Shown one piece after another: positions 2,961 to 19,421 of a stretch of DNA of 20,248 bases. Below the pieces are notes generated by a model, which was given only the letters and a program-made list of their open reading frames with translations, was not told the DNA's origin and ran no database searches. A program made the position numbers and the translations under genes. The stretch covers positions 1 through 20,248 of the forward strand of contig JBBSVV010000056.1 of the NCBI GenBank assembly GCA_038046625.1. Direction: 5' to 3'. Source of the stretch: an archaeon. GTDB lineage: Archaea; Iainarchaeota; Iainarchaeia; Iainarchaeales; Iainarchaeaceae. Every line of letters starts with the position of its first letter. Position 1 is the stretch's first letter.

Positions 2961-5939
2961 ATGCTGGACGGCTGGGCACTCATCAATTCTTACTTCAGGA
3001 CCAAGAATATTTCGCAGATGGAAATCGACAGCTTCAACCAGTTTATTGACAAGAAGCTGCCTGAAATAATCCGCGAGAACAATGAGGTTACCCCAAAAAT
3101 CGAGGAGGTTCGCGTTGAATTCGAGAAGATTGAAGTTTTGAGGCCGCGCATTGTCGAGGCCGATGGGAGCATCAGGAACGAATTTTATCCTTTGGAAGCG
3201 AGGCTCAGGAACAGGACTTATTCATCGCCCATTTATTTGACAATGAGGCTTTTGAGGCGCGACGTGGAGCAGGACAAGAAGAAAACGCATGTAGGCGAAT
3301 TGCCGATAATGCTGAAGAGCAACCGCTGCTGGCTCTCCGGAAAAACCGGGCAGGAGCTCATTGAAATGGGCGAGGACCCGATGGACTTCGGGGGTTATTT
3401 CATAATCAACGGCTCGGAAAAAGCGTTGATGACGCAGGAAGTGCTTGCCTCGGATCGCGTAATTGTTTCAGACCAGCTTGACAAGATTGTTGCTGAAGTA
3501 ATAAGCACAAGAGGGGCGTTCAAGGGGCGGGTCAGGATAATCAGGGGCGCGGACGGGATGCTCAACGTAACATTTCCTGCCTCGCCGAGAAAACTCAAGC
3601 TCTTTGTATTGCTGAAGGCGCTCGGATTGAAGAGCGCTCAGGCAATAAGGGAGGCATTCATTGACCAAACAGAAATACAGAATGATGTTTTGATCAACAT
3701 CGAGAATCTCCTCGTGAAGAGCGAAAAGGAAGCATTGGACAAAATCGGGAAATTCGTTGCGCCGGGACAGGTTGAAGAGTACAGGCTTAGGAGAGCGCAG
3801 GAAGTAATTGACGCGTTTTTGCTGCCGCACATCGGCCAGGACCAGAAGAACAGGCTCGCGAAGGCATACTACTTGGTCATGATGGCCACAAAGGCAATTG
3901 AACGCGCTTATAATTTGAGGGTTGAGGACGACAAGGACCATTACGCGAACAAGCGCCTTGAACTTTCCGGAAAATTAATGGAGCATTTGTTCAGGTACAG
4001 CTTCAAGTACTTCATCAAGGATTTGAAATTCCAGATTGACCGCACAGTTACAAGGAGAAGGAAGCTCAACATTTCAACTATTGTGAGGCCGGGCGCGGTT
4101 TCCGAAAGGATAAGGTTTGCAATGAGCACGGGCAACTGGATCGGGCGCGCAACCGGAGTTTCAAAGTTCATGGACCGCGTGAATTACCTTTCGCCTTTGA
4201 CTGATTTGAGGAAAGTAAAGAGCCCTTTGGACAAGAACCGCGAGCTTTATGAAGCAAGGGACGTGCACGGAACCCATTGGGGGCGCTTGTGCCCGATTGA
4301 GACTCCGGACGGGCCTCAATGCGTTACGCCTGACACTGAAATGACGCTTGCGAGCGGGGAAAAGGTCACGATTGCACAGTATGGGACAATGTGGAAAGAG
4401 CATAAGGTAGCGGCGCTTGACTGGCAAAGCAAGACGGAGGCAGATGCCAACACCACAAGGTTCCTTAGTATGGAGCCACGCAAAAAGGTGGTAGAACTTA
4501 CTACAACAGAAACAGGAAGAAAAATAACCGCAACGATCGACCACCCATTCTATTCGGAACGCGTGGGCAAGACCGAACTCGAAAACCTTAAGGCAGGTGA
4601 CAGGGTGGCAGTGATGCCGGCAAACCACATTCAATTCGAAAAACCTGAAGGCAGAATAATACTCTCTGCACAAGACATCATATCCGCATGCCCACCAAAA
4701 ACCGATATTGAAATGACACTCACAACACTTGCAGAAAAAGGATTAGTGCCATTGCATGACAACGACCAGAGGCTTCTTGCACTTACAAGGCTGCTTGGGC
4801 ATGCATTTGGGGATGGTTCACTCACAATTTCAATGAAAAAACATAAATCGGCATGCACCACCGTGTTCAGTGGCACTGAACCCGATCTAGAGGAAATCCG
4901 CAAAGACCTTGCCATATTAGGTTTCAGTGCATCAAAGCAAAGTGTTTACAGGAAGGAATCAGTGCTCAGCGACGGCAGGAAGATATCAGGGCTAAGCAGG
5001 AGAATGGACTGCTATTCAAAGCCATTCTGGATTCTCCTGCATGCACTTGGAGCCCCTGCAGGGGACAAGGCTACACAGGAAATGCACGTGCCACATTGGA
5101 TTGATGGGCAGAGGAAAATCATTGTGAAAGAGTTCTTGGCATCATACTTTGGCAGTGAAATGACAACGCCGACAGTGGACAAGAGGGATGGAAAAACGTT
5201 GCTGCAACCAGTGTTTTCGCTGAACAAAGTCGCTGGACTTACTCAGAACGGCATCGCATTTGTTGAGGAAATAAAAGGATTGCTTTCAAAATTTGGGATT
5301 GAAATGGCAAGCACGAAAATAGTTTACGGTACCACTAGGAAAAATGGAATCCAAACAAGGAAAATCAAGGCAAAGCTCAAGGGGAACCTTGAAAACCTCC
5401 TGAAGCTTTACGGGACAATATCGTTCAACTACTGTGCCAAGAGGAAGAGCCTTGCAAGAATTACTTACTCTTATCTCCAACACAAGAAATTCTCTGCTGA
5501 AAACAGGGCAGGTATGATGGAGCAGGCCATTTCACTGCACAGCAACGGGGCTAGCGTTTCACAAATAACAAGAAAGTTTGCAGGAGAACTCAGAAACCAC
5601 GATGTCATGAACTGGGTAAAGGCAACCAGGAAAGGCAGGCAGGCCAAGGCAAGGGTTTCGGAGATTGACTTCCCGAAGTTCAACGACTGGATAAGGGAGC
5701 ACGCAATCAGCGAAAATGGTATGATGTGGGAAACAATTGGCAGCATCGTGGAAGCACAGGCAACAAAAGTCATGGACATAACCACGCTCGAGGATTACCA
5801 TAATTTCTTCGCGAACGGATTCCTCACTGGCAATTGTGGCCTTGTGAAAAACCTTGCCTTGCTCGCGGAAGTCACAACCGAAAATGACGAGGAGCCCGTT
5901 GAAAAATTATTGAAGGACATGGGAGTGAAGTTGAAATGA
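2961..5939 (+). CDS. rpoB2: RNA polymerase subunit B'' (Rpo2N), intein-containing precursor (992 aa; 487 aa after splicing)
   Basis: YPLEARLRNRTYSSP, GGYFIINGSEK, DDKDHYANKRL, HWGRLCPIETPDGPQ|intein|CGLVKNLALLA. Confidence 0.96.
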   Translation: MLDGWALINSYFRTKNISQMEIDSFNQFIDKKLPEIIRENNEVTPKIEEVRVEFEKIEVLRPRIVEADGSIRNEFYPLEARLRNRTYSSPIYLTMRLLRRDVEQDKKKTHVGELPIMLKSNRCWLSGKTGQELIEMGEDPMDFGGYFIINGSEKALMTQEVLASDRVIVSDQLDKIVAEVISTRGAFKGRVRIIRGADGMLNVTFPASPRKLKLFVLLKALGLKSAQAIREAFIDQTEIQNDVLINIENLLVKSEKEALDKIGKFVAPGQVEEYRLRRAQEVIDAFLLPHIGQDQKNRLAKAYYLVMMATKAIERAYNLRVEDDKDHYANKRLELSGKLMEHLFRYSFKYFIKDLKFQIDRTVTRRRKLNISTIVRPGAVSERIRFAMSTGNWIGRATGVSKFMDRVNYLSPLTDLRKVKSPLDKNRELYEARDVHGTHWGRLCPIETPDGPQCVTPDTEMTLASGEKVTIAQYGTMWKEHKVAALDWQSKTEADANTTRFLSMEPRKKVVELTTTETGRKITATIDHPFYSERVGKTELENLKAGDRVAVMPANHIQFEKPEGRIILSAQDIISACPPKTDIEMTLTTLAEKGLVPLHDNDQRLLALTRLLGHAFGDGSLTISMKKHKSACTTVFSGTEPDLEEIRKDLAILGFSASKQSVYRKESVLSDGRKISGLSRRMDCYSKPFWILLHALGAPAGDKATQEMHVPHWIDGQRKIIVKEFLASYFGSEMTTPTVDKRDGKTLLQPVFSLNKVAGLTQNGIAFVEEIKGLLSKFGIEMASTKIVYGTTRKNGIQTRKIKAKLKGNLENLLKLYGTISFNYCAKRKSLARITYSYLQHKKFSAENRAGMMEQAISLHSNGASVSQITRKFAGELRNHDVMNWVKATRKGRQAKARVSEIDFPKFNDWIREHAISENGMMWETIGSIVEAQATKVMDITTLEDYHNFFANGFLTGNCGLVKNLALLAEVTTENDEEPVEKLLKDMGVKLK
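4320..5834 (+). mobile_element. Intein with LAGLIDADG-type homing endonuclease in RpoB'' (505 aa, Cys1...Gly-Asn, +1 Cys)
   Basis: Block A CVTPDTEM; block B ITATIDHPF; endonuclease motifs LLGHAFGDG and FLASYFGSE; blocks F/G VMDITT..HNFFANGFLTGN/C. Removal restores ETPDGPQ-CGLVKN. Confidence 0.95.
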
Positions 5940-5940
5940 T

Positions 5941-6025
5941 TACGGCGAGCGGAGCGAGCATGGTCCTGCGAAGCAGGATCAGTCGTACCCAACAGCCGCG
6001 AAGTCCTCGAAGAGGGAAACTGTTG
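5941..6025. repeat. Composite nested-hairpin element between rpoB'' and rpoB' (contains copy 2 of the mini-element)
   Basis: tacggc(5941-46)/gtcgta(5982-87) encloses the hairpin tggtcctgc-GAA-gcaggatca; caacag(5990-95)/ctgttg(6020-25) encloses cctc-GAA-gagg; shares sequence with 14-38. Confidence 0.7.
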
Positions 6026-6036
6026 TGGTGATGGTT

Positions 6037-7860
6037 ATGGTGTCTGAAGCGAAGAATGCAAAGGTTTACATCAATGGAAGGCTGATTGGGTTCCATAGCG
6101 ACCCGATAAAGCTCACGCGCGAAATAATCGGCAGGAGAAGGGAAAGCAAAATCTCCGCGCAGATAAATGTGGCGTACCACGAGGACACCAACGAGGTTTA
6201 CATCAACACAGACGCGGGCCGTGTCCAGAGGCCGCTGCTTGTTGTCGAAAACGGAAAAATAAGGATGAAAGAGGAGCACGTGAAGCAGCTCAATGAGGGA
6301 AAGCTCGCTTGGAAAGACCTCATTGAACAGGGCCTCGTCGAATATTTGGATTCTGAAGAGGAGGAGAATGCGTTCATTGCCTCAAAGGAAGAGGAGCTTT
6401 CAAAGGAGCACACCCACCTTGAAATCAGCGGTGCCACGATTCTGAGCATAATCAGCAGCATGGTCCCCTTCCTCGAGCATGACATGGTGGGAAAGGTCCT
6501 GCACGGCGCAAAAATGTTCAAGCAGGCGCAGGGGTTCGGCGCGGCCAACTTCGGATTGAGGACGGACACAGAGGGGTTCTTTTTGTACTATCCACAGAAG
6601 TCGCTCGTCAAGACAAAAACAATGGACGTTATAGGAATTGACCAGAGGCCGGAGATACAGAATTTCGTGGTTGCAATAATGCCATTCTACGGCTTCAACA
6701 TTCTGGACGCAATAATTCTGAATAAAGGCGCTGTCGACAGGGGCTTGGGAAGAAGCACTTATTTCAGGACTTATGAGAGCGCGGAGAACCGCTATCCGGG
6801 GGGCCAGATTGACAAGTTCGAGATTCCTCCCGAGGACACAATCGGGTTTTTGGGCGAGGAATCCTACAAGAAGCTGGGCGCCGACGGTTTTGTGCAGCCC
6901 GAATCGTTTGTCGGGGAAAACGAAATAATTGTGGGAATAACTTCTCCGCCGAGATTTTTGGAGGAGATTAACGAGTTCGGTGTCGTGCAGGAAAAAAGAA
7001 GGGACGCGAGCATAAGCATCAGGAAAGGAAAGGAAGGGCACGTGGACAAGGTTTTTGTAACGGAATCCGAATCAGGAAACAAGCTCGTGAAGGTAAAGGT
7101 CAGGAGCGAGAGGGTCCCTGCTTTGGGCGACAAGTTCAGTTCGAGGCACGGGCAGAAAGGCGTTGTAGGATTGATTGTTCCGGAGGAAGACATGCCTTTT
7201 ACTCCGGATGGAATAAAGCCGGACCTGATTTTGAATCCGCACTCGCTTCCAAGCAGGATGACAATCGGGCACATGATTGAAATGCTGGGCGGAAAGGCTG
7301 CAGCCATGAAGGGGATGCACATTGACGGAACGCCTTTTGAAGGAACGAAAGAGGAAGAGATTGAGAAGATGCTTGATGAGGCCGGATTCAAGAAGAACGG
7401 CCGCGAAGTATTCTATGACGGGACAACCGGCAAGAGAATCAACGCAGAAATTTTTACAGGGATTGTCGCTTACAGGAGGCTGTTCCACATGACCGCGCAC
7501 AAGATACAATCAAGGGCAAAGGGGCCTGTGCAGATACTCACGAGGCAGCCGACAGAAGGAAAGGAAAAGGAAGGCGGGCTCAGGTTTGGAGAAATGGAAG
7601 GCGAAACTTTGGTCGGGCACGGCGCGGCCATGCTTCTGCAGGAAAAATTCATTGACGATTCTGACAAAGTCACCATGTGGGTTTCGGAAACCGCGGGAGT
7701 AATAGGCTTTGAGGACCAGATAAGGAAAACCAGGCGCGTGCTCGAGGCGAGCGACAGCAAGATTTACGCGGTTGAAATGAGCTACGGATTCAAATTGCTT
7801 TTGGATGAGTTGAAGGCTTTGGGAGTTTACCCGAAACTGATATTGAAGGACAAGGTGTGA
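6037..7860 (+). CDS. rpoB1: RNA polymerase subunit B' (Rpo2C)
   Basis: KVYINGRLIG, TDAGRVQRPL, GDKFSSRHGQKG, PDLILNPHSLPSRMTIG, RQPTEG..GGLRFGEME. Start at ATG 6037 after SD ggtgat (6027-6032). Confidence 0.96.
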   Translation: MVSEAKNAKVYINGRLIGFHSDPIKLTREIIGRRRESKISAQINVAYHEDTNEVYINTDAGRVQRPLLVVENGKIRMKEEHVKQLNEGKLAWKDLIEQGLVEYLDSEEEENAFIASKEEELSKEHTHLEISGATILSIISSMVPFLEHDMVGKVLHGAKMFKQAQGFGAANFGLRTDTEGFFLYYPQKSLVKTKTMDVIGIDQRPEIQNFVVAIMPFYGFNILDAIILNKGAVDRGLGRSTYFRTYESAENRYPGGQIDKFEIPPEDTIGFLGEESYKKLGADGFVQPESFVGENEIIVGITSPPRFLEEINEFGVVQEKRRDASISIRKGKEGHVDKVFVTESESGNKLVKVKVRSERVPALGDKFSSRHGQKGVVGLIVPEEDMPFTPDGIKPDLILNPHSLPSRMTIGHMIEMLGGKAAAMKGMHIDGTPFEGTKEEEIEKMLDEAGFKKNGREVFYDGTTGKRINAEIFTGIVAYRRLFHMTAHKIQSRAKGPVQILTRQPTEGKEKEGGLRFGEMEGETLVGHGAAMLLQEKFIDDSDKVTMWVSETAGVIGFEDQIRKTRRVLEASDSKIYAVEMSYGFKLLLDELKALGVYPKLILKDKV

Positions 7861-8079
7861 ATGATGAATTTGAAACCAGGAAAATTGAACAGTGCAATTG
7901 GAATAATTGCGTTCATTATCACATGGATAATTGTCGGAAATTTCAATCAGATTTGCACTAAGTTGTACCCTAGTACATGTGGACCTGAAATTTATTCGAC
8001 AACTATTATTGCGTTAATTGCAGGAATCATAGCGTACTTGATTGGAAGCATTTTTGAAAAGGAAAAAGGGAAGATGTGA
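7861..8079 (+). CDS. Small hypothetical membrane protein (72 aa, two TM helices, Cys pair in the loop)
   Basis: Exactly fills the rpoB'-rpoA' gap. Hydrophobic AIGIIAFIITWIIVG and TTIIALIAGIIAYLIGSIF flank QICTKLYPSTCGPE; visibly AT-richer than neighbours. Confidence 0.75.
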   Translation: MMNLKPGKLNSAIGIIAFIITWIIVGNFNQICTKLYPSTCGPEIYSTTIIALIAGIIAYLIGSIFEKEKGKM

Positions 8080-8085
8080 TTGGAA

Positions 8086-10698
8086 ATGTTGTCAAAAAGA
8101 ATTGTCGGGGTTGAATTCAGGGTCCTGGGCCCGACAATGGTAAGGAAAATGAGCGCAATAGACATCAAGAGCCCCGAGACTTACGATAAGGACGGCTTCC
8201 CGATGGAAGGCGGATTAATGGACAACCATCTCGGAGTAATTAACCCCGGTTTGAGGTGCAAAACCTGCGGAAACACGATGAAGAAATGCCCGGGGCACTT
8301 CGGGCACATTGAGCTTGTGAGGCCGGTTTCGCACAGCGAGTTCACGAAAAAGGTGGAAGCGCTCATGATGGCGACATGCCAGCACTGCGGAAGGATTGCG
8401 ATTCCCGATGACAAGCTTGACCAATTGAGGCCTTACATCGGGGATTCTGACATTGACGTTGATAAAAAAATATTGTCGCGCACGAAGAAAGTGAAGAAGT
8501 GCCCGTATTGCACCGGCGAAAGGAAAGTCGTTCTTTTGGACAAGCCGACAAATTTCTATTTGGACAAGGACAGGATTTATCCGACGGAAATAAGGGAGTG
8601 GATGGAGAAAATCCCCGACAAGGATCTGGAATTTTTTGGTTACGAGCCGCAGAAACTGAGGCCCGAGTGGTTTGTCCTTACTGTTCTGCAGGTTCCGCCT
8701 ATAAATCTGAGGCCGAGCATTACCCTTGAATCCGGAATAAAGAGCGAAGACGATTTGACGCACAAGCTCGTTGACATAATAAGAATCAACATGCGCCTGA
8801 AGGACAACATTGATGCGGGTGCGCCGCAGCTCATCATTGAGGATTTGTGGGATTTGCTGCAGTACCACGTGAGCACTTACTTCAACAACAATACCGCAGG
8901 AGTTCCGCCGGCGAAGCACAGGTCCGGGAGAGCATTGAGGACTCTTGTCCAAAGGTTGCAGGGAAAGAAAGGGCGCTTCAGGTACAACTTAACGGGAAAG
9001 CGCGTCAACTTTGCGGCGCGTTCAATCATTACTCCGGATCCAATGCTTTCAATCAATGAATTGGGCGTTCCGCAGGAGATTGCGGAGAACATGACTGTTC
9101 CCGAAACAATAACCAAGGGAAATGTGCCTGTTTACAAGGAAATGGTGAAGGAAGGAAAGGTCCTTTACGTGCAAAGGCCTGATGGCATGAGGAGAAAAAT
9201 CGTGGATGTGAACCGCGACCTCATCCTCGAGGAACTCGATGTCGGCTACAGGGTTGAAAGGAAACTCAAGAACGGGGACATTGTGCTGTTCAACAGGCAG
9301 CCTTCGCTGCACAGGCTTTCGATGATGGCGCATTACGCGAAAATAATGCCGGACAAGACTTTCAGGTTGAACCCGATTGTCTGCAAGCCATACAACGCGG
9401 ACTTTGATGGGGATGAAATGAACATGCATGTTCCGCAGACGCCCGAAGGAATCGCGGAAGCCTCGGAGCTGATGCTTGTGCAGAAGCTCATTATTTCGCC
9501 GCGCTACGGTGCGCCTGTGATTATACTTGACGAGGACGGAATCTCGGGCTGCTTCATGCTTACCATGAAGCAGACCACATTCAGCAGGGAGGACGCGTTC
9601 AGGTTCTTCCAGATAATGGGTTTGGAGGATATCCCCAAGCCGGATGCGGGAAAGGACAGGTACAGCGGAAAACTCATTTTCTCGCAGCTTTTGCCAAAAG
9701 ACCTGAACATGGAGTACAAGTCAAGGTTCTACCACCACGTGAAGAGCATGGATGCGAACCATCCCGCATTGAAGGACCCGTACAAGCACGATTTGATTGT
9801 GAAAATCGAGAAAGGCGTCCTGAAGTCCGGGGTAATCGACTCGATGAGCCTTGGGGAAGGAAAGGGAAAGCTCGTTGATGCGCTCGCGAGGGATTATGAC
9901 AGGTCTGTCATTGCGGACTTTTACGACAAGATTTCAAAAATCATTTCCGCACTGATTACTTCGGTCGGAATGACCGTTAGTTTGGAGGAATATACCCCAA
10001 GCCAGAAAGTAACCAAGATACGCGAAAAGGCGATTGAGGAAATGAGGGAAGCCGCAAAGGAGCACGTGCAAAAATTCCACAGGGGAAGCCTCGAGCTCAT
10101 TCCCGGAAGGACGCTTACCGAATCCTTTGAAATCAACATGATGAGGACTGCGGCCGCGGCAAAGGAAAAGGTGCAGAAGCAGATAATGAGGGAAGTCGTT
10201 GAAAGCACAATGGTTGAGGAGCCGGAGTTCAACAGCAATGTAATGATACTCTCGGGTTCAAGGGGAAGCGTAATCAACCTCACGAACCTTTACGGAATGT
10301 GGGGCCAGGCATCCGTAAGGGAAGGGCGCCCCAAGAGGGGATTCAGCAACAGGCTCATTGCATTGAACAGGCGCGATGATGTCGGCATTGATGCCGGCGG
10401 ATTCATAAACCACAACTTCAGGGAAGGAATGAGCAGCTTCGAGTACTTCTACCACGCGATGGGTGGAAGGCAGGGAGAAGTCGACACAGGGGTTTCCACA
10501 AAAGTATCCGGATACTTATACAGGAGGCTCGCGAATTCACTGAAGGATTTGGTCGTGAACAACGATGCAACCGTAAGGACCGCGAACAAGAACATTGTGC
10601 AGTACAAGTACGGGGAAGACGGCGTATTCCCGGAAAAGTCATTTAAGGGAAGGAGCATTTCGGTCAAAAGGGAACTCGAAAAGCTCAGGGGCAAGTGA
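8086..10698 (+). CDS. rpoA1: RNA polymerase subunit A' (Rpo1N)
   Basis: CKTC..CPGHFGH, GKRVNFAARS, LFNRQPSLH, catalytic YNADFDGDEMN, bridge-helix region GYLYRRL. ATG 8086 preferred to TTG 8080. Confidence 0.97.
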   Translation: MLSKRIVGVEFRVLGPTMVRKMSAIDIKSPETYDKDGFPMEGGLMDNHLGVINPGLRCKTCGNTMKKCPGHFGHIELVRPVSHSEFTKKVEALMMATCQHCGRIAIPDDKLDQLRPYIGDSDIDVDKKILSRTKKVKKCPYCTGERKVVLLDKPTNFYLDKDRIYPTEIREWMEKIPDKDLEFFGYEPQKLRPEWFVLTVLQVPPINLRPSITLESGIKSEDDLTHKLVDIIRINMRLKDNIDAGAPQLIIEDLWDLLQYHVSTYFNNNTAGVPPAKHRSGRALRTLVQRLQGKKGRFRYNLTGKRVNFAARSIITPDPMLSINELGVPQEIAENMTVPETITKGNVPVYKEMVKEGKVLYVQRPDGMRRKIVDVNRDLILEELDVGYRVERKLKNGDIVLFNRQPSLHRLSMMAHYAKIMPDKTFRLNPIVCKPYNADFDGDEMNMHVPQTPEGIAEASELMLVQKLIISPRYGAPVIILDEDGISGCFMLTMKQTTFSREDAFRFFQIMGLEDIPKPDAGKDRYSGKLIFSQLLPKDLNMEYKSRFYHHVKSMDANHPALKDPYKHDLIVKIEKGVLKSGVIDSMSLGEGKGKLVDALARDYDRSVIADFYDKISKIISALITSVGMTVSLEEYTPSQKVTKIREKAIEEMREAAKEHVQKFHRGSLELIPGRTLTESFEINMMRTAAAAKEKVQKQIMREVVESTMVEEPEFNSNVMILSGSRGSVINLTNLYGMWGQASVREGRPKRGFSNRLIALNRRDDVGIDAGGFINHNFREGMSSFEYFYHAMGGRQGEVDTGVSTKVSGYLYRRLANSLKDLVVNNDATVRTANKNIVQYKYGEDGVFPEKSFKGRSISVKRELEKLRGK

Positions 10699-13813: not shown

Positions 13814-16800
13814 ATGGCCAAGAAAGAGGAAATTGCGAGGCTTGCGGAAAAGCTGATGGGAAACCGCGAAAACATCCGCAACATTGGGATTGTCGCGCAC
13901 ATAGACCACGGAAAATGCGTGGCGCCGCAAACGAGGCTCCAGATTGCCGACGGCGAATTCGTTACTGCACAGGAACTTTTCAACAAAACATCCTTGAGCG
14001 GCACAAAAGTAAGGGAAACTTCTTCGGAAATTGTTTACGAGTCAAAGGATAACGTGAAAATTTTTTCTGTGGAAAAAAACGGGAAAATTTCGAGAAAAAG
14101 GATTTCACATGCATGGAAACTAAAGGGTGGGCAGACACTTTCCATTACACTCAGAAACGGAGCATGTATTACAACTACTCCCGAGCACGAGTTCATGCTT
14201 TTTGACGGCGCACAATTCTCCTACAGGCAAGCAAAAGAAATAATGGTTGGCGAGAGGATTGTGGCTGCGCGCGAAACACCAGTGGAAACTATTCGGGACG
14301 TCAACATGGAGGCACTTAAACTGCTTTCCAGAAACGGGTTTTTTGCCACGGTAAAGAGTGATGTGAAAGTGCGCCTCAGGGAATCAATAATTAATTATGG
14401 CGTGAAGCGGGCTTGGATTGAATCAGGAACCGCTCTCAAGGAAAAATCTTTTTATCACTGCATCTGGAAGGGGAAATATGGGCTCGCTGAGTTGTTTGGC
14501 CTCGCAAAAATACTGCACATGGAAGAAGAAGCTGTTGCAGGCTGGGTTGAAAAAGTGGGGACAAAAGGGAGCGATTACATACAGTGGCCTGTGGATTTTC
14601 ATGATTTGTTTTATGTTGCCGGCCTCATGGTCGGAGATGGCACAGGCCAAAAATTCGTTGCGGGCAAACAGTTTTTGGCACAGGAATTCAAAAGGATTTG
14701 TTTAGGGTTTGGCATAAAGTACTTTGACAGGAACTATGAAGGAAAAACACCAGAAGTCGGGGCGTCGAAAACGCTTGCAAAAATGCTCAATGCGTTGTTT
14801 GACTATCCTTTAAGGAAAAAATCGCACAACGTGAGGGTTTCAAAGTTTCTCCAGAAGGCGCCGACCGAACTGGCCGCGCTTTTCATCAAAGGTTATTTTG
14901 ACTGCGATGGCTCTGTTGAAAAAGCAAGAAAAGCCGCCACGATAAGCAGCGCAAGTGCTTTGATGATTGAAGAAATGCAGTTGCTGTTAAGCAGGTTCGG
15001 TTGCGTGGCAATAAGGGAAAAGGACAATACGCTCAGCATTTCAGGCGAGTCACTGAAAAACTTTGCTTCAAAAATAGGTTTCAAGCTTGAGGAAAAACAA
15101 TCCAAAGCCGAAATACTGGCAAAACTCTCCACAGGCAGTCTTGTTGCGGATTTGGTGCCGATGCACGGGCTTAGGCAGGCAAGGGAAGGGATTGGGATTT
15201 CGAGAAATGCCGTAAGCAGGCATTACTACAAATACGAAAGCGATTCATACACGCCGACAATTTCCACTTACAACAAACTCATAATGAAAATGAAACAAAA
15301 AGGCATTGAGGCGCATATTGACGTAAGCCAACTGGCTTTCATTGAAGTCACATCCATAAAAGAATCTTTCACGGAAACGGTGTATGATTTCAGTGTCCCT
15401 GAAACGAGGAACTTTGTGGCGGAAACTTTCGTAGTGCACAACACAACCCTTTCTGATAATCTTGTCGCGGCCTCGGGAATGATGAGCCAGGAGCTCGCTG
15501 GAAAGCAGCTTGTAATGGATTTTGAGGACCAGGAGCAGGAACGCGGAATAACAATCAACGCGGCAAACATCTCGCTTTTGTATGACCACGGCGGAAAAGA
15601 GTACCTCGTGAATCTCATCGACACTCCGGGTCATGTTGACTTTGGCGGGGAAGTCATACGCGCAATGAGGGCTGTTGACGGCGTCGTTCTTGTCATTGAT
15701 GCGGTTGAAGGCGTAATGCCACAGACCGAAACCGTCATAAGGCAGGCGCTGCGCGAATACGTGAAGCCTGTTTTGTTCGTGAACAAGGTCGACAGATTGA
15801 TCAAGGAACTGCAGGTGAATGAGCAGCAGATGCAGGAACGCTTTTTAAAGGTAATTGCGCACGTCAATGCGCTCATAAAAAAGAATGCGCCGAAAGAGTT
15901 TGCGGACGAATGGACTGTGAAGGTGCAGGACGGTTCCGTGACATTCGGGAGCGCCTACAACAACTGGGCAGTTTCGGTTCCGAGGATGAAGGAAACCGGA
16001 ATTTCCTTCAAGGACGTTTACGAATATTTGAAAAGCGGCAGGCAGAAGGAGCTCGCCGAGAAAAGCCATTTGAGCGACGCATTGTTCCAGATGGTCATAA
16101 CGCATCTGCCTAGCCCGCTCAAGGCACAGAAATACAGGATACCCGTCATCTGGAAAGGGGAACTGGAAAGCCCGATTGCGAAGTCAATGAGGGCGTGCGA
16201 CCAGAGCGGGCCTTTCGCAATGATGGTTACCGATGTTTCCGTTGACAAGCACTCGGGGGACATTGCAACCGGAAGGGTTTACTCGGGAACCGTGAAGAAA
16301 GGAATGAAGGTCAGGCTCGTGGGTTTGCAGAAGGAAGCGCCGATACAAAAAGTCGGCCTGTTCATGGGCGCGGATTTCACGGATGTTACCGAGGTTCCTG
16401 CGGGAAACATTGTTTCGCTCGTGGGAATGAAGGAAGTGTTTGCCGGAGAAACGATAACTGATGACCCGGAAATGAATTCATTTGAAAGCTTCATGACCGA
16501 GGTCGAGCCCGTAATAACGATTTCGATTGAGGCAAAGAACACAAAGGATTTGCCGAAGCTCATCGAGACAATCAGGCAGGTTACAAAGGAAGACCCTAAC
16601 GTCAAAGCCACTATAAACCAGGAGACAGGGGAACATTTGCTTTCCGGAATGGGCGAACTGCACCTTGAGATTATCCAGTACAGGATTGAGAAGCACCACC
16701 ATGTGCCGATACAGGTTTCGCCGCCGATTGTTGTTTACCACGAGACAATAAACAGCGGAAGCCGCTCGCTCGAATCAAAGAGCCCGAACAGGCACAACAA

Positions 16801-17536
16801 ACTCTTGATGAAGGTTCAGAAGCTGCCGAACGAGGTTCTTGAGAATCTTATTAAGAGCCACTTTGTGGGAAAGGTCAAGCCGAAGGACAAGGACAAAATT
16901 GCGATGTTTCAGGAAATGGGATTCGACAACGAAATATCCAAGAAAATCTGGGCGGTGCACAATAATTGTGTTTTGATTGATTCGACGCGCGGAATAGATT
17001 CGCTGCACGAAATACGCGAACTCGTTATCCAGGGCTTCAATGACGCAATGGACGCGGGGCCGCTTTCAAAGGAAAAATGCTTCGGCATGGCCGTTTTCCT
17101 CGAGGATGCTTCTCTGCACGAGGATGCGATTCATCGCGGGCCGGCACAGATGCTTCCGACAGTAACGAGGGGAATTTTTGCATGCATGATGGATGCCGAC
17201 CCGGTTCTTTACGAGCCTAAGCAGATGCTCACAATCAGCGTTCCGGAAGATTACTTGGGCGCGGTTTCAAAGGAGCTTGGTTCGAGAAGGACGCAGATTA
17301 CGGAAATGCGCCAGGAAGGGGACTCGAGCGTAATCATCGGCAAGGCGCCGGTAAAGGAACTCATTGGTTTTTCACAGAGCATCAGGAGTGCTACTCAGGG
17401 ACGCGTGATTTGGACGGCGGAGTACGCGGGCTATGAATTGCTGCCGCGCGAACTGCAGAAGCAAACCATTACTGAAATCAGGAAGCGCAAGGGCATGGAT
17501 TCTGATGTCAAGCCGGCTTCGTTCTGGCTCGAGTGA
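13814..17536 (+). CDS. fusA: Translation elongation factor aEF-2, intein-containing precursor (1240 aa; 731 aa after splicing)
   Basis: IRNIGIVAHIDHGK|intein|TTLSDNL, EQERGITI, NLIDTPGHVDF, NKVD, SGMGELHLE, diphthamide loop LHEDAIHRGPAQ. Confidence 0.97.
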   Translation: MAKKEEIARLAEKLMGNRENIRNIGIVAHIDHGKCVAPQTRLQIADGEFVTAQELFNKTSLSGTKVRETSSEIVYESKDNVKIFSVEKNGKISRKRISHAWKLKGGQTLSITLRNGACITTTPEHEFMLFDGAQFSYRQAKEIMVGERIVAARETPVETIRDVNMEALKLLSRNGFFATVKSDVKVRLRESIINYGVKRAWIESGTALKEKSFYHCIWKGKYGLAELFGLAKILHMEEEAVAGWVEKVGTKGSDYIQWPVDFHDLFYVAGLMVGDGTGQKFVAGKQFLAQEFKRICLGFGIKYFDRNYEGKTPEVGASKTLAKMLNALFDYPLRKKSHNVRVSKFLQKAPTELAALFIKGYFDCDGSVEKARKAATISSASALMIEEMQLLLSRFGCVAIREKDNTLSISGESLKNFASKIGFKLEEKQSKAEILAKLSTGSLVADLVPMHGLRQAREGIGISRNAVSRHYYKYESDSYTPTISTYNKLIMKMKQKGIEAHIDVSQLAFIEVTSIKESFTETVYDFSVPETRNFVAETFVVHNTTLSDNLVAASGMMSQELAGKQLVMDFEDQEQERGITINAANISLLYDHGGKEYLVNLIDTPGHVDFGGEVIRAMRAVDGVVLVIDAVEGVMPQTETVIRQALREYVKPVLFVNKVDRLIKELQVNEQQMQERFLKVIAHVNALIKKNAPKEFADEWTVKVQDGSVTFGSAYNNWAVSVPRMKETGISFKDVYEYLKSGRQKELAEKSHLSDALFQMVITHLPSPLKAQKYRIPVIWKGELESPIAKSMRACDQSGPFAMMVTDVSVDKHSGDIATGRVYSGTVKKGMKVRLVGLQKEAPIQKVGLFMGADFTDVTEVPAGNIVSLVGMKEVFAGETITDDPEMNSFESFMTEVEPVITISIEAKNTKDLPKLIETIRQVTKEDPNVKATINQETGEHLLSGMGELHLEIIQYRIEKHHHVPIQVSPPIVVYHETINSGSRSLESKSPNRHNKLLMKVQKLPNEVLENLIKSHFVGKVKPKDKDKIAMFQEMGFDNEISKKIWAVHNNCVLIDSTRGIDSLHEIRELVIQGFNDAMDAGPLSKEKCFGMAVFLEDASLHEDAIHRGPAQMLPTVTRGIFACMMDADPVLYEPKQMLTISVPEDYLGAVSKELGSRRTQITEMRQEGDSSVIIGKAPVKELIGFSQSIRSATQGRVIWTAEYAGYELLPRELQKQTITEIRKRKGMDSDVKPASFWLE
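13916..15442 (+). mobile_element. Intein with LAGLIDADG homing endonuclease and HTH in the EF-2 P-loop (509 aa, Cys1...His-Asn, +1 Thr)
   Basis: CVAPQT; ITTTPEHEF; YVAGLMVGDG and FIKGYFDCDGSV; XRE-like LRQAREGIGISRNAVS; VYDFSVPETRNFVAETFVVHN/T. Confidence 0.96.
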
Positions 17537-17537
17537 A
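17510..17537 (+). repeat. 28-bp direct repeat, copy 1 (3' end of fusA including stop codon; att-like)
   Basis: aagccggcttcgttctggctcgagtgaa is identical to 18737-18764. Confidence 0.95.
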
Positions 17538-17893
17538 TAATTCCAATCGGCCAAACGGAGCCACAAATTATTTCACGGTAAACTGCACCCCCACATCAAG
17601 CACCATGGCCATAATCTACAGAACAAAAACCAACCCATCATGCTCCGGAAGCGGAACAATAGATGATGTCAACATCACGAGCAATGCTTAACCTTTGACA
17701 CAAACGACATGCCAAAAGACGCAAAGCAGGATGCATACTGAACTGGCAAAGGCCCGACACGAATTTGAACGAACAAGGAACACTTGATGCGGGACAATAC
17801 AAAAGCATAAACACTTACGAATTAATGGCTTGCCGAGACTGCCACCCATCCAACAGCATGGATTTTCTTGCGCCCGGTCGCCGAAACATTTAA
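17533..17893 (+). pseudogene. Possible frameshifted remnant of a secreted/surface protein
   Basis: Successive frames give N/T/S/C-rich pieces: VNNSNRPNGATNYFTVNCTPTSSTMAIIYRTKTNPSCSGSGTIDDVNITSNA* (17533-17691), LTFDTNDMPKD..., GCILNWQRPDTNLNEQGTLDAGQYKSINTYEL...; no intact long ORF. Confidence 0.35.
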
Positions 17894-17917
17894 ATTGTTG
17901 TATTACACTGTATTACA
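17889..17917 (+). promoter_or_regulatory. TATA box plus tandem palindromic operator for TA module 1
   Basis: tttaaat at 17889-17895, followed by two TGTA-T-TACA palindromes at 17899-17907 and 17909-17917 (10-bp period). Confidence 0.7.
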
Positions 17918-17928
17918 TTGGTGTTTCT

Positions 17929-18216
17929 GTGCCTTCTGATGTAGTGACCGTGCGTTTTGACGACAAGACAAAAAAACAGATTTCAAAATTTTTGCGGCAG
18001 AGGCTTGAATCGCAATCGGAAGTTATCAGAAAAGCCGTTGCGCAGTACGTGCAAAAAGAAAACGAGCTCGGCGAAATCAAGCAGGTGGTTGCGCAAAAAT
18101 TTGCTGAAGGAAAAATTTCCTTTGACGAGCTTGTGCGGATTATTGGATATGAGGAAGCCAAAAAAGTAGCTTACCTTGTTGATGTAACTGAAAAATCCCT
18201 CAAAGAAGGGATTTAA
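17929..18216 (+). CDS. Antitoxin: ribbon-helix-helix (CopG-like) N-terminus with UPF0175-like C-terminus
   Basis: GTG start after ggtg SD: MPSDVVTVRFDD...SQSEVIRKAVAQYV (RHH pattern), KFAEGKISFDELVRIIG; 1 nt upstream of a PIN gene. Confidence 0.8.
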   Translation: MPSDVVTVRFDDKTKKQISKFLRQRLESQSEVIRKAVAQYVQKENELGEIKQVVAQKFAEGKISFDELVRIIGYEEAKKVAYLVDVTEKSLKEGI

Positions 18217-18736: not shown

Positions 18737-18764
18737 AAGCCGGCTTCGTTCTGGCTCGAGTGAA
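18737..18764 (+). repeat. 28-bp direct repeat, copy 2 (duplicate of the fusA 3' end)
   Basis: Identical to 17510-17537; starts at the base immediately after the PIN gene stop codon. Confidence 0.95.
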
Positions 18765-18837: not shown

Positions 18838-19074
18838 ATGGCTCGTGCAATAATGGTTTCGGACAGAATCTATGGCAGGCTCTCGAAAATAAAAAAAGGG
18901 GCGAGCAGGAGCTTCAGCGAGGTTCTGGATGGCCTCCTCGAAAAGGAAAGCGATAGCTCAAAAACCGGGGGCATTCTCGGGCTTTACGGCTCTTGGAAGG
19001 AAAGCCCGGAAGATGCGAAAGCGGCGAAAGAAATCAAGGAAGCGTGGAAAAAATGGGACCGCCAGTATGCCTAG
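18838..19074 (+). CDS. vapB: VapB-family antitoxin (archaeal DUF217/COG1753-like)
   Basis: MARAIMVSDRIYGRLSKIK...SFSEVLDGLL...LYGSW pattern; 3' end overlaps the downstream PIN gene. Confidence 0.85.
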   Translation: MARAIMVSDRIYGRLSKIKKGASRSFSEVLDGLLEKESDSSKTGGILGLYGSWKESPEDAKAAKEIKEAWKKWDRQYA

Positions 19075-19421
19075 ACACAGATGTGATAATAGAGTTCCTG
19101 AAAGGAAGGAATCCTGAACTCAGAAAATCTTTCCAGGAAGGCAAGGAATACTGCACTACAAGCATAACTGCCTTTGAGCTGAGGATGAGGAAAACCAACC
19201 TCAAGCCGGTAGAAGAATTCCTGGCCAGAACCAAGGTTTTCTCTTTTGATGATTTATGTTCAGCCATAGCGGCCGACACGAACAAGGAACTCAAAGAGCG
19301 TGGGAAAACAATTGAATTGCGTGACCTGTTCATAGCTGCCACCTGCATCAGGAACAATTGCGCCCTACTCACGAAAAACCAAAAGCATTTCAGGCAGATG
19401 AAAGGCCTGGAACTGGCATAA
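19053..19421 (+). CDS. vapC: VapC PIN-domain ribonuclease toxin
   Basis: Likely start MGPPVCLDTDVIIEFL; TTSITAFEL, ELRDLFIAATC, LLTKNQKHF. Confidence 0.92.
   Translation: MGPPVCLDTDVIIEFLKGRNPELRKSFQEGKEYCTTSITAFELRMRKTNLKPVEEFLARTKVFSFDDLCSAIAADTNKELKERGKTIELRDLFIAATCIRNNCALLTKNQKHFRQMKGLELA

Follow-up and report, generated by a model that had tools for sequence, protein, structure and literature searches.

The window analysed here is a 20,248-nt stretch of DNA, contig C56 of an archaeal genome assembly (G000; 986 kb in 57 contigs, 85% complete), in which the genes for the two halves of RNA polymerase subunit B, rpoB'' and rpoB', are separated by a spacer of 97 nt (5940-6036, from the TGA of the first to the ATG of the second). 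We propose that this spacer is one copy of a non-coding, modular mobile repeat of ~60-90 nt, which has spread in one lineage of DPANN archaea and which ribosomes read across; we give this explanation a probability of roughly 0.7. All features described at this locus are on the forward strand. The upstream gene, rpoB'' (2961-5939), encodes the N-terminal half of the subunit (Pfam Rpb2 domains 1-3), contains an intein and ends with the TGA at 5937-5939. The downstream gene, rpoB' (6037-7860), encodes the C-terminal half (Rpb2 domains 4-7) from the ATG at 6037, and its start, MVSEAK, can be aligned with that of relatives. The RpoB' protein is 63-66% identical to those of Candidatus Diapherotrites / Candidatus Iainarchaeum and 82-83% identical to those of closer archaeal relatives. 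Four nucleotides 5' of the rpoB' ATG lies GGTGAT (6027-6032), which we take to be a Shine-Dalgarno sequence on an assumed anti-Shine-Dalgarno identity; AGGTGA or GGTG stands at the equivalent place in relatives with a short junction.

The spacer is made of three repeat modules: GCGAGCGGAGCGAGC (module A), a 9-bp hairpin capped with GAA (module H), and a 25-nt core with 18 added loop bases (module C). Family alignments place the inserted element, with its A-H-C architecture, at 5940-6025, the 3' end at 6025 being sharp and the 5' end approximate (5940-5945). Module A (5945-5959) is not self-complementary; its motif, GCGAGCG[AG]AGCGAGC, has four exact matches in the genome and about 20 at up to three mismatches, often immediately 5' of an H hairpin. 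Module H (5961-5981) has a 9-bp stem with one G.T pair, a GAA loop and a GCGAAGC cap, and in other copies of the element the same position holds homologous hairpins with different stems. Module C (5983-6025) reads TCGTACC-CAACAG-(24-nt loop)-CTGTTG. Removal of the 18-nt loop module (5999-6016; CCTC at 6005-6008, GAA, GAGG at 6012-6015), which canonical cores lack, leaves a 25-mer that matches at 24 of 25 positions a second, canonical core copy at 14-38, at the start of the contig and just after the end of a T-type hairpin module. A first-pass annotation of this DNA had called this core the 'ribC element' and had noted its occurrence in the spacer at 24/25 identity with an 18-nt loop insert, along with the ~97-nt spacer, module A, the GCGAAGC-capped hairpin and the CCTC-GAA-GAGG insert, and all of these are found where it had placed them. 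Throughout the family, a sharp 3' module C follows variable hairpin modules of type H (ccaag-stem-GNA-stem) or type T (tactatcgag..gaagatagta). The 5' module is often A (GCGAGCGNAGCGAGCC) or a short form, aATGCGAAGCC, the leaders 5' of module A are heterogeneous and A/T-rich, and modules combine in many ways and orientations, for example with A on either side of an inverted core.

These modules are dispersed. At least 27 core copies are present in the 0.99-Mb genome. At up to three mismatches the 25-mer core is found 15 times, compared to none for five shuffled cores, and the 11-nt 5' motif has 29 matches, 27 of which continue as a hairpin (C16:14236 and C36:1473 were set aside). Contig ends hold several of the core copies, which is usual for repeats. 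Across the phylum the core is present in 27 of 215 genomes, including 17 of the 22 other genomes of the host's own taxonomic family, while a reversed-pattern control gave no match in any of the 215. The sites elsewhere lie after unrelated genes and inside tRNA 3' ends, in both orientations relative to their neighbours; when orientation was scored against flanking genes using 300-nt flanks, 63 of 100 copies could not be assigned and the remainder were mixed.

Covariation was assessed in an alignment of 86 cores (28 distinct), chosen by similarity to the consensus and related by a kinship that inflates the statistics. Two helices stand out. In the first, S1, TCG (5983-5985) pairs with a CGA in the loop (5999-6001 here), and the pair between the first base of NCG and the loop base of CGN' (positions 1 and 17) is found as UA in 19 cases, CG in 3 and GC in 3. 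In the second, S2, CAACAG (5990-5995) pairs with CTGTTG (6020-6025), and pair 12-21 of this stem is AU in 19 cases and CG in 6. The covariation score was 0.148, against 0.043 ± 0.015 in shuffles (0/500), and controls with slid positions reached at most 0.03. Elsewhere whole stems are swapped (CCACAG/CTGTGG, CAACTG/CAGTTG, GCCG/CGGC) with the TCG..ACC..CGA..AA frame kept. As the two pairings interleave, the core forms a compact H-type pseudoknot with covariation in both helices.

Folding energies tell a more modest story. The first-pass annotation had called the spacer nearly all secondary structure, which is accurate for module H, whose stability is far beyond that of shuffles (z -4.9 as RNA and -4.5 as DNA; 0/200 shuffles each), and does not extend to the spacer as a whole (5930-6040: z -1.7 as RNA, -0.7 as DNA), nor to the element span (5940-6026: -2.0 and -0.8) or to the core with its mini-hairpin alone, which is unremarkable (-0.7 and -0.2). 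An outer stem that it had also described (TACGGC 5941-5946 with GTCGTA 5982-5987) is present in the DNA fold and was not seen as a feature of the family. C-GAA-G caps, for which it had proposed a genome-wide scan, are no signature of this genome: only 7 of 442 perfect hairpins (stem of at least 6, loop of 3) carry them. Since the spacer and the core fold close to their shuffles, the case for significance lies in repetition and covariation, not in energy.

The 18-nt hairpin inserted in the core loop is a recurrent, covarying and site-specific module in its own right. The exact 23-mer formed by the insert and its flanks, CGCGAAGTCCTCGAAGAGGGAAA, is found again in this genome at C5:28303, within a core whose stem is different (TACCG/CGGTG). 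At up to three mismatches the 23-mer has 15 matches in 4 of the 23 genomes of the taxonomic family, the reversed control having none. Eleven of the 15 are in core loops, where CG invariably precedes and AAA follows them, and the cores concerned have at least four types of stem; in three other genomes this position is taken by variants whose stems have changed in a compensatory way. In these 11 loop modules the third pair of the mini-stem is T-A three times, C-G five times, A-T once and mismatched twice. The four remaining matches are all from G001 and lie within a different composite. Each of four core stem types exists both with and without the module. Either, therefore, the module comes and goes at a specific site, or it has long been an optional arm of the core. 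In the rpoB spacer it begins with CGA, so that TCG 5983-5985 is still able to pair in its presence. The proposal of the first-pass annotation that modular units insert into each other holds in this respect, with the same 23-mer in a second core and inserts of 30-56 nt in the loops of other cores of this genome: besides the 18 nt seen here, these measure 30, 48, 48, 50, 51 and 56 nt, and some duplicate 18 nt of the 5' part of the core. Its idea that module lengths are multiples of three agrees with 5 of 7 loop inserts (18, 30, 48, 48 and 51, against 50 and 56), a small sample in which two inserts share one sequence; a refined form of this rule, given below, applies to the element together with its target duplication.

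To place the spacer in context, the junction was compared among 18 relatives in which both gene ends were found. Seven of them have a junction that is overlapping or 12-26 nt long, with a plain Shine-Dalgarno sequence and no element. The same-genus genome (L002 in G001:C38), whose RpoB' is 99% identical, has a 319-nt spacer without the element; this spacer holds an open reading frame (ORF) of roughly 100 codons, started at an ATGA and resembling a small membrane protein. The core is at this junction in only two relatives, L003 and L008, both of another genus, and in both a second, diverged version of the rpoB'' 3' end comes after it (in L008, KDMGVKLK-stop and later KGMGAKLK-stop). The remaining eight have other fillers, and in one of these, L004, the 3' end of the spacer is a second copy of GVKLR-stop with synonymous changes only. 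As relatives show short, element-bearing and otherwise filled spacers, the rpoB''|rpoB' junction is a repeatedly invaded site. In contigs from three sequencing runs of two studies (X1, X6 and X7) the filled form is present without a single difference. In one X6 contig the match ends at the rpoB'' stop (5939) and is followed by a different sequence containing AAACTGTTG, which probably comes from a related strain with another filling of the junction.

Target duplications were sought in 100 copies from fetched loci and from G000, of which 82 were usable after dropping 18 with short flanks or N. In 31 of the 82, the upstream and downstream flanks aligned with a score higher than the 95th percentile for mismatched flank pairs. 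Duplication length varies from 9 to 61 nt, and the downstream copy mostly starts 0-2 nt 3' of CTGTTG. The duplicated targets are gene 3' ends with their stop, tRNA 3' ends and gene starts, and the duplications rebuild the gene end or gene start that was interrupted. Together with the conserved fold, the sharpness of the 3' end and the variation in duplication length suggest that a single strand is recognised by its structure and that two breaks are made at a loose spacing.

How an essential operon could accommodate such an insertion is suggested by the reading frame that crosses it. A predicted mini-ORF of 31 codons (MITASGASMVLRSRISRTQQPRSPRRGKLLW, then stop; 5936-6031) starts at an ATG that overlaps the rpoB'' stop (ATGA) and ends at the TGA at 6029-6031, within GGTGAT and 5 nt 5' of the rpoB' ATG. 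The distance from stop to stop is 92 nt, that is, 2 modulo 3, which is the arithmetic that an ATGA start requires. The same spacing recurs in the family: where a gene end has been duplicated, no stop interrupts the second stop's frame as far back as the first one in 15 of 17 copies, an ATG often overlaps the first stop, and the length from stop to stop (element plus duplication) is 2 modulo 3 in 12 of the 17 (binomial p 0.002) and in 16 of 31 bounded copies (p 0.03), both p values being overstated because at least one pair of copies is orthologous. In 14 of 34 copies the 5' motif is joined directly to an ATG; of 18 frames started by an ATG, 17 are open to the end of the core. What is conserved is openness and not the product, since the peptide varies by frame (RTQQPKLL or YPTAETVV). 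With its ATGA start and its 92 nt, the rpoB locus follows the rule of the family, and this 3n+2 rule for element plus duplication refines the multiple-of-three proposal without confirming it. Translational coupling in Haloferax and Escherichia coli fades beyond a spacing of ~30-40 nt, according to a review (PMC12548453).

From these data we propose the following scenario. The element would have inserted exactly at an old rpoB''/rpoB' stop/start junction, and would be co-transcribed with both genes. Ribosomes terminating rpoB'' at its TGA would begin again at the ATG that overlaps it (5936), melt the hairpins while reading 31 codons, stop at the TGA inside the rpoB' ribosome-binding site, and reinitiate 5 nt further on at the rpoB' ATG. 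Through this proposed relay the two polymerase halves would remain translationally coupled despite the 97 extra bases. The 18-nt loop module, six codons in the frame of the mini-ORF, would preserve it. The element is probably tolerated at this junction because ribosomes can read straight across it, and an incidental effect on rpoB' translation via the mini-ORF is likely. As for its spread, the folded single strand, DNA or RNA, would be recognised by some machinery, which would ligate the sharp 3' end, just after CTGTTG, at one break, while the 5' end would be joined at another break, 9-61 nt away on the other strand; fill-in of the two spaced breaks would yield the target duplication. A more ambitious version, which we offer tentatively and hold less likely than not, is that these are a new class of prokaryotic mobile DNA: elements of ~60 nt with a conserved 3' pseudoknot, folded in a single strand, as the handle for structure-specific target-primed insertion, with duplications of 9-61 nt that rebuild the gene end, and with a start codon of their own that lets translation pass across them, moved by a housekeeping or an unrecognised enzyme rather than a known transposase, reverse transcriptase or Cas1, and carrying the 18-nt mini-hairpin as a smaller, site-specific passenger of the loop.

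Several observations weigh against this explanation. The first concerns movement: searches for Y1, reverse transcriptase, TnpB and Cas1 gave no mobilising enzyme. Y1_Tnp (PF01797) had no match in G000, which is 85% complete, nor was a reverse transcriptase or TnpB found in it; RVT_1 (PF00078) had no match in the 23 genomes of the taxonomic family, while control genomes gave matches; and Cas1 (PF01867) was present in one of the 23, not G000. The second concerns the insertion itself. No target duplication is detectable at the rpoB locus (best alignment p 0.32 against shuffles), and insertion at this junction would have to be read from the relatives alone. No empty allele was seen in the X1, X6 and X7 contigs, although contigs drop rare variants and some of the runs may be the source of the assembly. 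The third concerns translation. An open frame of 31 codons has a chance prior of ~0.2, (61/64)^31; the gene calls come from a crude longest-ORF rule; a look-up of RNA runs over 5600-6400 gave no entry; and both strands of the elements have roughly half the stop codons of their shuffles (60 and 43, compared with 115 and 110). Because this depletion affects both strands, the openness of the read-through frames is partly compositional. Finally, mismatches in 69 upstream hairpins (11 G.T against 8 A.C) do not discriminate RNA from DNA. Two further candidates were rejected: stop-codon avoidance as a proof of translation, given that depletion is not strand-specific, and the pair GTTGaaaTGAT/GTTGtggTGAT (8 of 11 positions) as a target duplication, which is a possible vestige at most, its alignment not being significant.

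An alternative in which no dedicated enzyme is needed is that a nascent strand, during template switching or break repair, copies a hairpin module and resumes upstream, leaving an insert and a duplication. The many combinations and orientations of the modules and the wide variation in duplication length would fit this process, as would tandem arrays of element plus duplication and a 1.2-kb cassette in the window that lacks hairpin modules and likewise has a gene-end repeat, perfect over 28 nt, on either side. As an example of the arrays, L096 (G002:C116, 1424-2735 in contig coordinates) has a period of 87 nt and resembles a variable-number tandem repeat. Yet dozens of independent copies share exactly the same 3' junction, the 18-nt module keeps its fixed place in the loop, and different genera have retained the core, with changes that compensate each other; these three features argue for specific recognition, and we consider an enzyme-free origin unlikely. 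As a separate observation on spacing, pairs of cores lie 61-76 nt apart in G018 (L064, L065 and L068).

The first-pass annotation had favoured a system like that of repetitive extragenic palindromic (REP) sequences and REPINs, the REP doublets forming hairpins, in which hairpins are the recognition sites of an HUH transposase (Y1, REP-associated tyrosine transposase (RAYT) or IS200-type) acting on single-stranded DNA. The hairpins here are indeed small, stable, nested and dispersed; Y1_Tnp is found in 9 of the 23 genomes of the taxonomic family (8 over the cut-off, with seven matches in the same-genus genome), and element-rich genomes tend to carry it, although kin are not independent. Moreover, the base 5' of the hairpin covaries with another position, which recalls the pairing of guide and cleavage site in IS608. 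Set against this are the lack of Y1_Tnp in G000, the 9-61-nt target duplications in 31 of 82 copies, and the 5' ends of the element, which no conserved tetranucleotide precedes; to our knowledge, IS200/IS605 and REP elements insert without target duplication. In addition, the Y1 genes of this lineage lie in IS200-like units of ~0.6 kb whose end hairpins (CCCCATCTC.. and CCCACGCC.., left and right ends examined in the G001/G010 unit) are unlike modules A, H and C. We regard the REP-like reading, on this evidence, as quite improbable. The right-end hairpin of this IS200-like unit has its own orphan copies in G000, at least eight of them (C3:28979, C53:11237, C36:7767, C31:5951 and 6226, C35:1644, C29:5732 and C5:62597), the unit itself not being found in this assembly, and these orphans form a separate, truly REP-like family.

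It had also been suggested that the spacer is a structured RNA that tunes rpoB' translation; such an RNA could be a leader, riboswitch or thermosensor that masks the Shine-Dalgarno sequence. The conserved covarying pseudoknot and the adjacency of the element to GGTGAT are in line with this, as are the pairing of the Shine-Dalgarno region with GUCGUACC in the minimum-energy RNA fold and the slightly better folding of the forward-strand RNA (z -2.0 versus -1.25 for the reverse strand). However, the element is not at this junction in the same-genus genome or in the seven short-junction relatives, and the same core occurs at unrelated genes and tRNA 3' ends, in both orientations. Rfam gave no match at gathering score over the window and just two chance rows (E 3.2 and 8.6) on 5880-6100. 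A role as a dedicated regulator of rpoB' is accordingly very improbable. Conservation at this locus with no dispersed copies, or a match to a known Rfam family, had been named beforehand as the outcomes that would speak against modular insertion, and neither is what we find.

Just as improbable is a retroelement like a short interspersed element, a small structured RNA copied into nicked targets from its 3' pseudoknot by target-primed reverse transcription, a process expected to leave 5' leaders and duplications that vary beside a sharply defined 3' end, as seen here in the 3' boundary that abuts the downstream target copy, the A/T-rich heterogeneous leaders and the 9-61-nt duplications, and against which stand the absence of RVT_1 from the 23 genomes of the taxonomic family, with positive controls, and the many 5' ends that share a defined motif, aATGCGAAGCC, rather than random truncations.

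The mobile repeat that we favour has no assembled autonomous partner in this genome, since the longest repeat in a self-BLAST is 416 nt, and no pair of modules A and C encloses an ORF in it. A separate family of ~140-nt repeats is also present in G000, with at least nine copies at 77-94% identity (C39:908-1049, C41:34262-34402, C50:18914-19054, C18:18562-18695, C3:26346-26485, C2:14335-14475, C1:9030-9173, C1:13731-13870 and C39:14586-14726).

Other features of the window concern the neighbouring genes. Residues 466-956 of rpoB'' are the intein (Pfam Intein_splicing), whose C-terminal part was aligned in one of the 18 relatives (L009) and not in the same-genus genome; a second intein lies in elongation factor EF-2 (13814-17536), at residues ~65-543, and has a LAGLIDADG domain. 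In the 220-nt gap between rpoB' and rpoA', a 23-nt stretch (8039-8061) is 74% identical to the start region of rpoA' (8077-8099; TGATTGGAAG../TGATTGGAAA..) and is possibly another old gene-start duplication; a 72-codon ORF in this gap (7861-8079) has no Pfam match. The 28-nt perfect direct repeat mentioned above is the 3' end of EF-2 including its TGA (17510-17537 and 18737-18764), around a 1.2-kb insert that contains a ribbon-helix-helix protein (17830-18216) and a 172-aa ORF, without a Pfam match, that ends on the second repeat. This cassette is followed by a PIN-domain ORF (18993-19421). As this repeat brackets a 1.2-kb insert, gene-end duplication is not confined to hairpin elements.

No published description of this hairpin family was found by a literature search whose coverage did not include the supplements of a census of transposable elements of the miniature inverted-repeat type (MITEs), a census that reports a high MITE density in some DPANN genomes (PMC11602168). 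Among known systems, the closest in working, though not in homology, are the interspersed repetitive units of mycobacteria (MIRUs). These too are short repeats between co-oriented genes, and tandem arrays of units are found here as well (L096); the ATGA overlap and the stop beside the next start in our element are matched by the internal ORF of MIRUs, which overlaps the start or stop of its neighbour by 4 nt (coupled at -4 nt) and whose insertion barely disturbs expression, according to the consulted part of PMC12548453. MIRUs belong to another domain of life, and that part of the paper describes for them no pseudoknot, nested hairpins or 9-61-nt duplications. REP sequences with their bacterial interspersed mosaic elements (BIMEs), and REPIN-RAYT systems, share small GC-rich hairpins, mosaic combinations of modules and an intergenic location near gene ends, and differ in that G000 has no RAYT/Y1 gene and that target duplications here are long. 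Palindrome-associated transposable elements (PATEs) derived from IS200/IS605 would be expected to resemble their source, whereas the ends of our element differ from the resident left-end and right-end hairpins.

MITEs such as Correia/NEMIS elements are likewise non-autonomous, present in tens of copies, nested in each other and flanked by a target duplication. As the census describes them, they have terminal inverted repeats and fixed duplications of 2-10 bp (PMC11602168). In contrast, our element has no terminal inverted repeat (5' aATGCGAAGCC against 3' CCGAAACTGTTG, judged by eye on an alignment of 21 A'-H-C elements and on 31 copies with defined bounds) and its target duplications are variable and much longer (9-61 nt). 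Rickettsia palindromic elements (RPEs) are palindromic repeats tolerated because they are translated, in frame inside proteins, while the element described here forms its own mini-ORF between two genes. Lastly, the double-hairpin elements and GC clusters in mitochondria of fungi and algae are very small hairpin modules that insert into one another as well as into intergenic DNA and the ends of genes, and for which we know of no enzyme; they are organellar and share no sequence with our element, and we can cite neither a pseudoknot core nor mini-ORFs for them. Several points are new in the present case: the rpoB junction has been invaded repeatedly in different genera; element plus duplication follows a 3n+2 rule; the 5' motif bears an ATG; the 18-nt loop hairpin is a recurrent, covarying, site-specific module; and the Y1 transposases of the lineage belong to a different hairpin family.

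Split rpoB genes are normally tightly coupled, and here a selfish insert would sit in an essential-operon junction of a 1-Mb genome at apparently low cost, which makes this junction a natural test case for termination-reinitiation in archaea. Described prokaryotic repeats are not known to unite the traits found here: a pseudoknot that covaries and marks a sharp 3' end, mini-hairpins nested at specific sites, long and variable target duplications that repair the gene hit, and the lack of any recognisable enzyme. For annotation, it follows that spacers of this kind are not to be labelled riboswitches or terminators. The way in which these elements move could reveal a new insertion mechanism in DPANN archaea, and their movement could explain many of the short duplications at gene ends, tRNA ends and operon junctions in these genomes.

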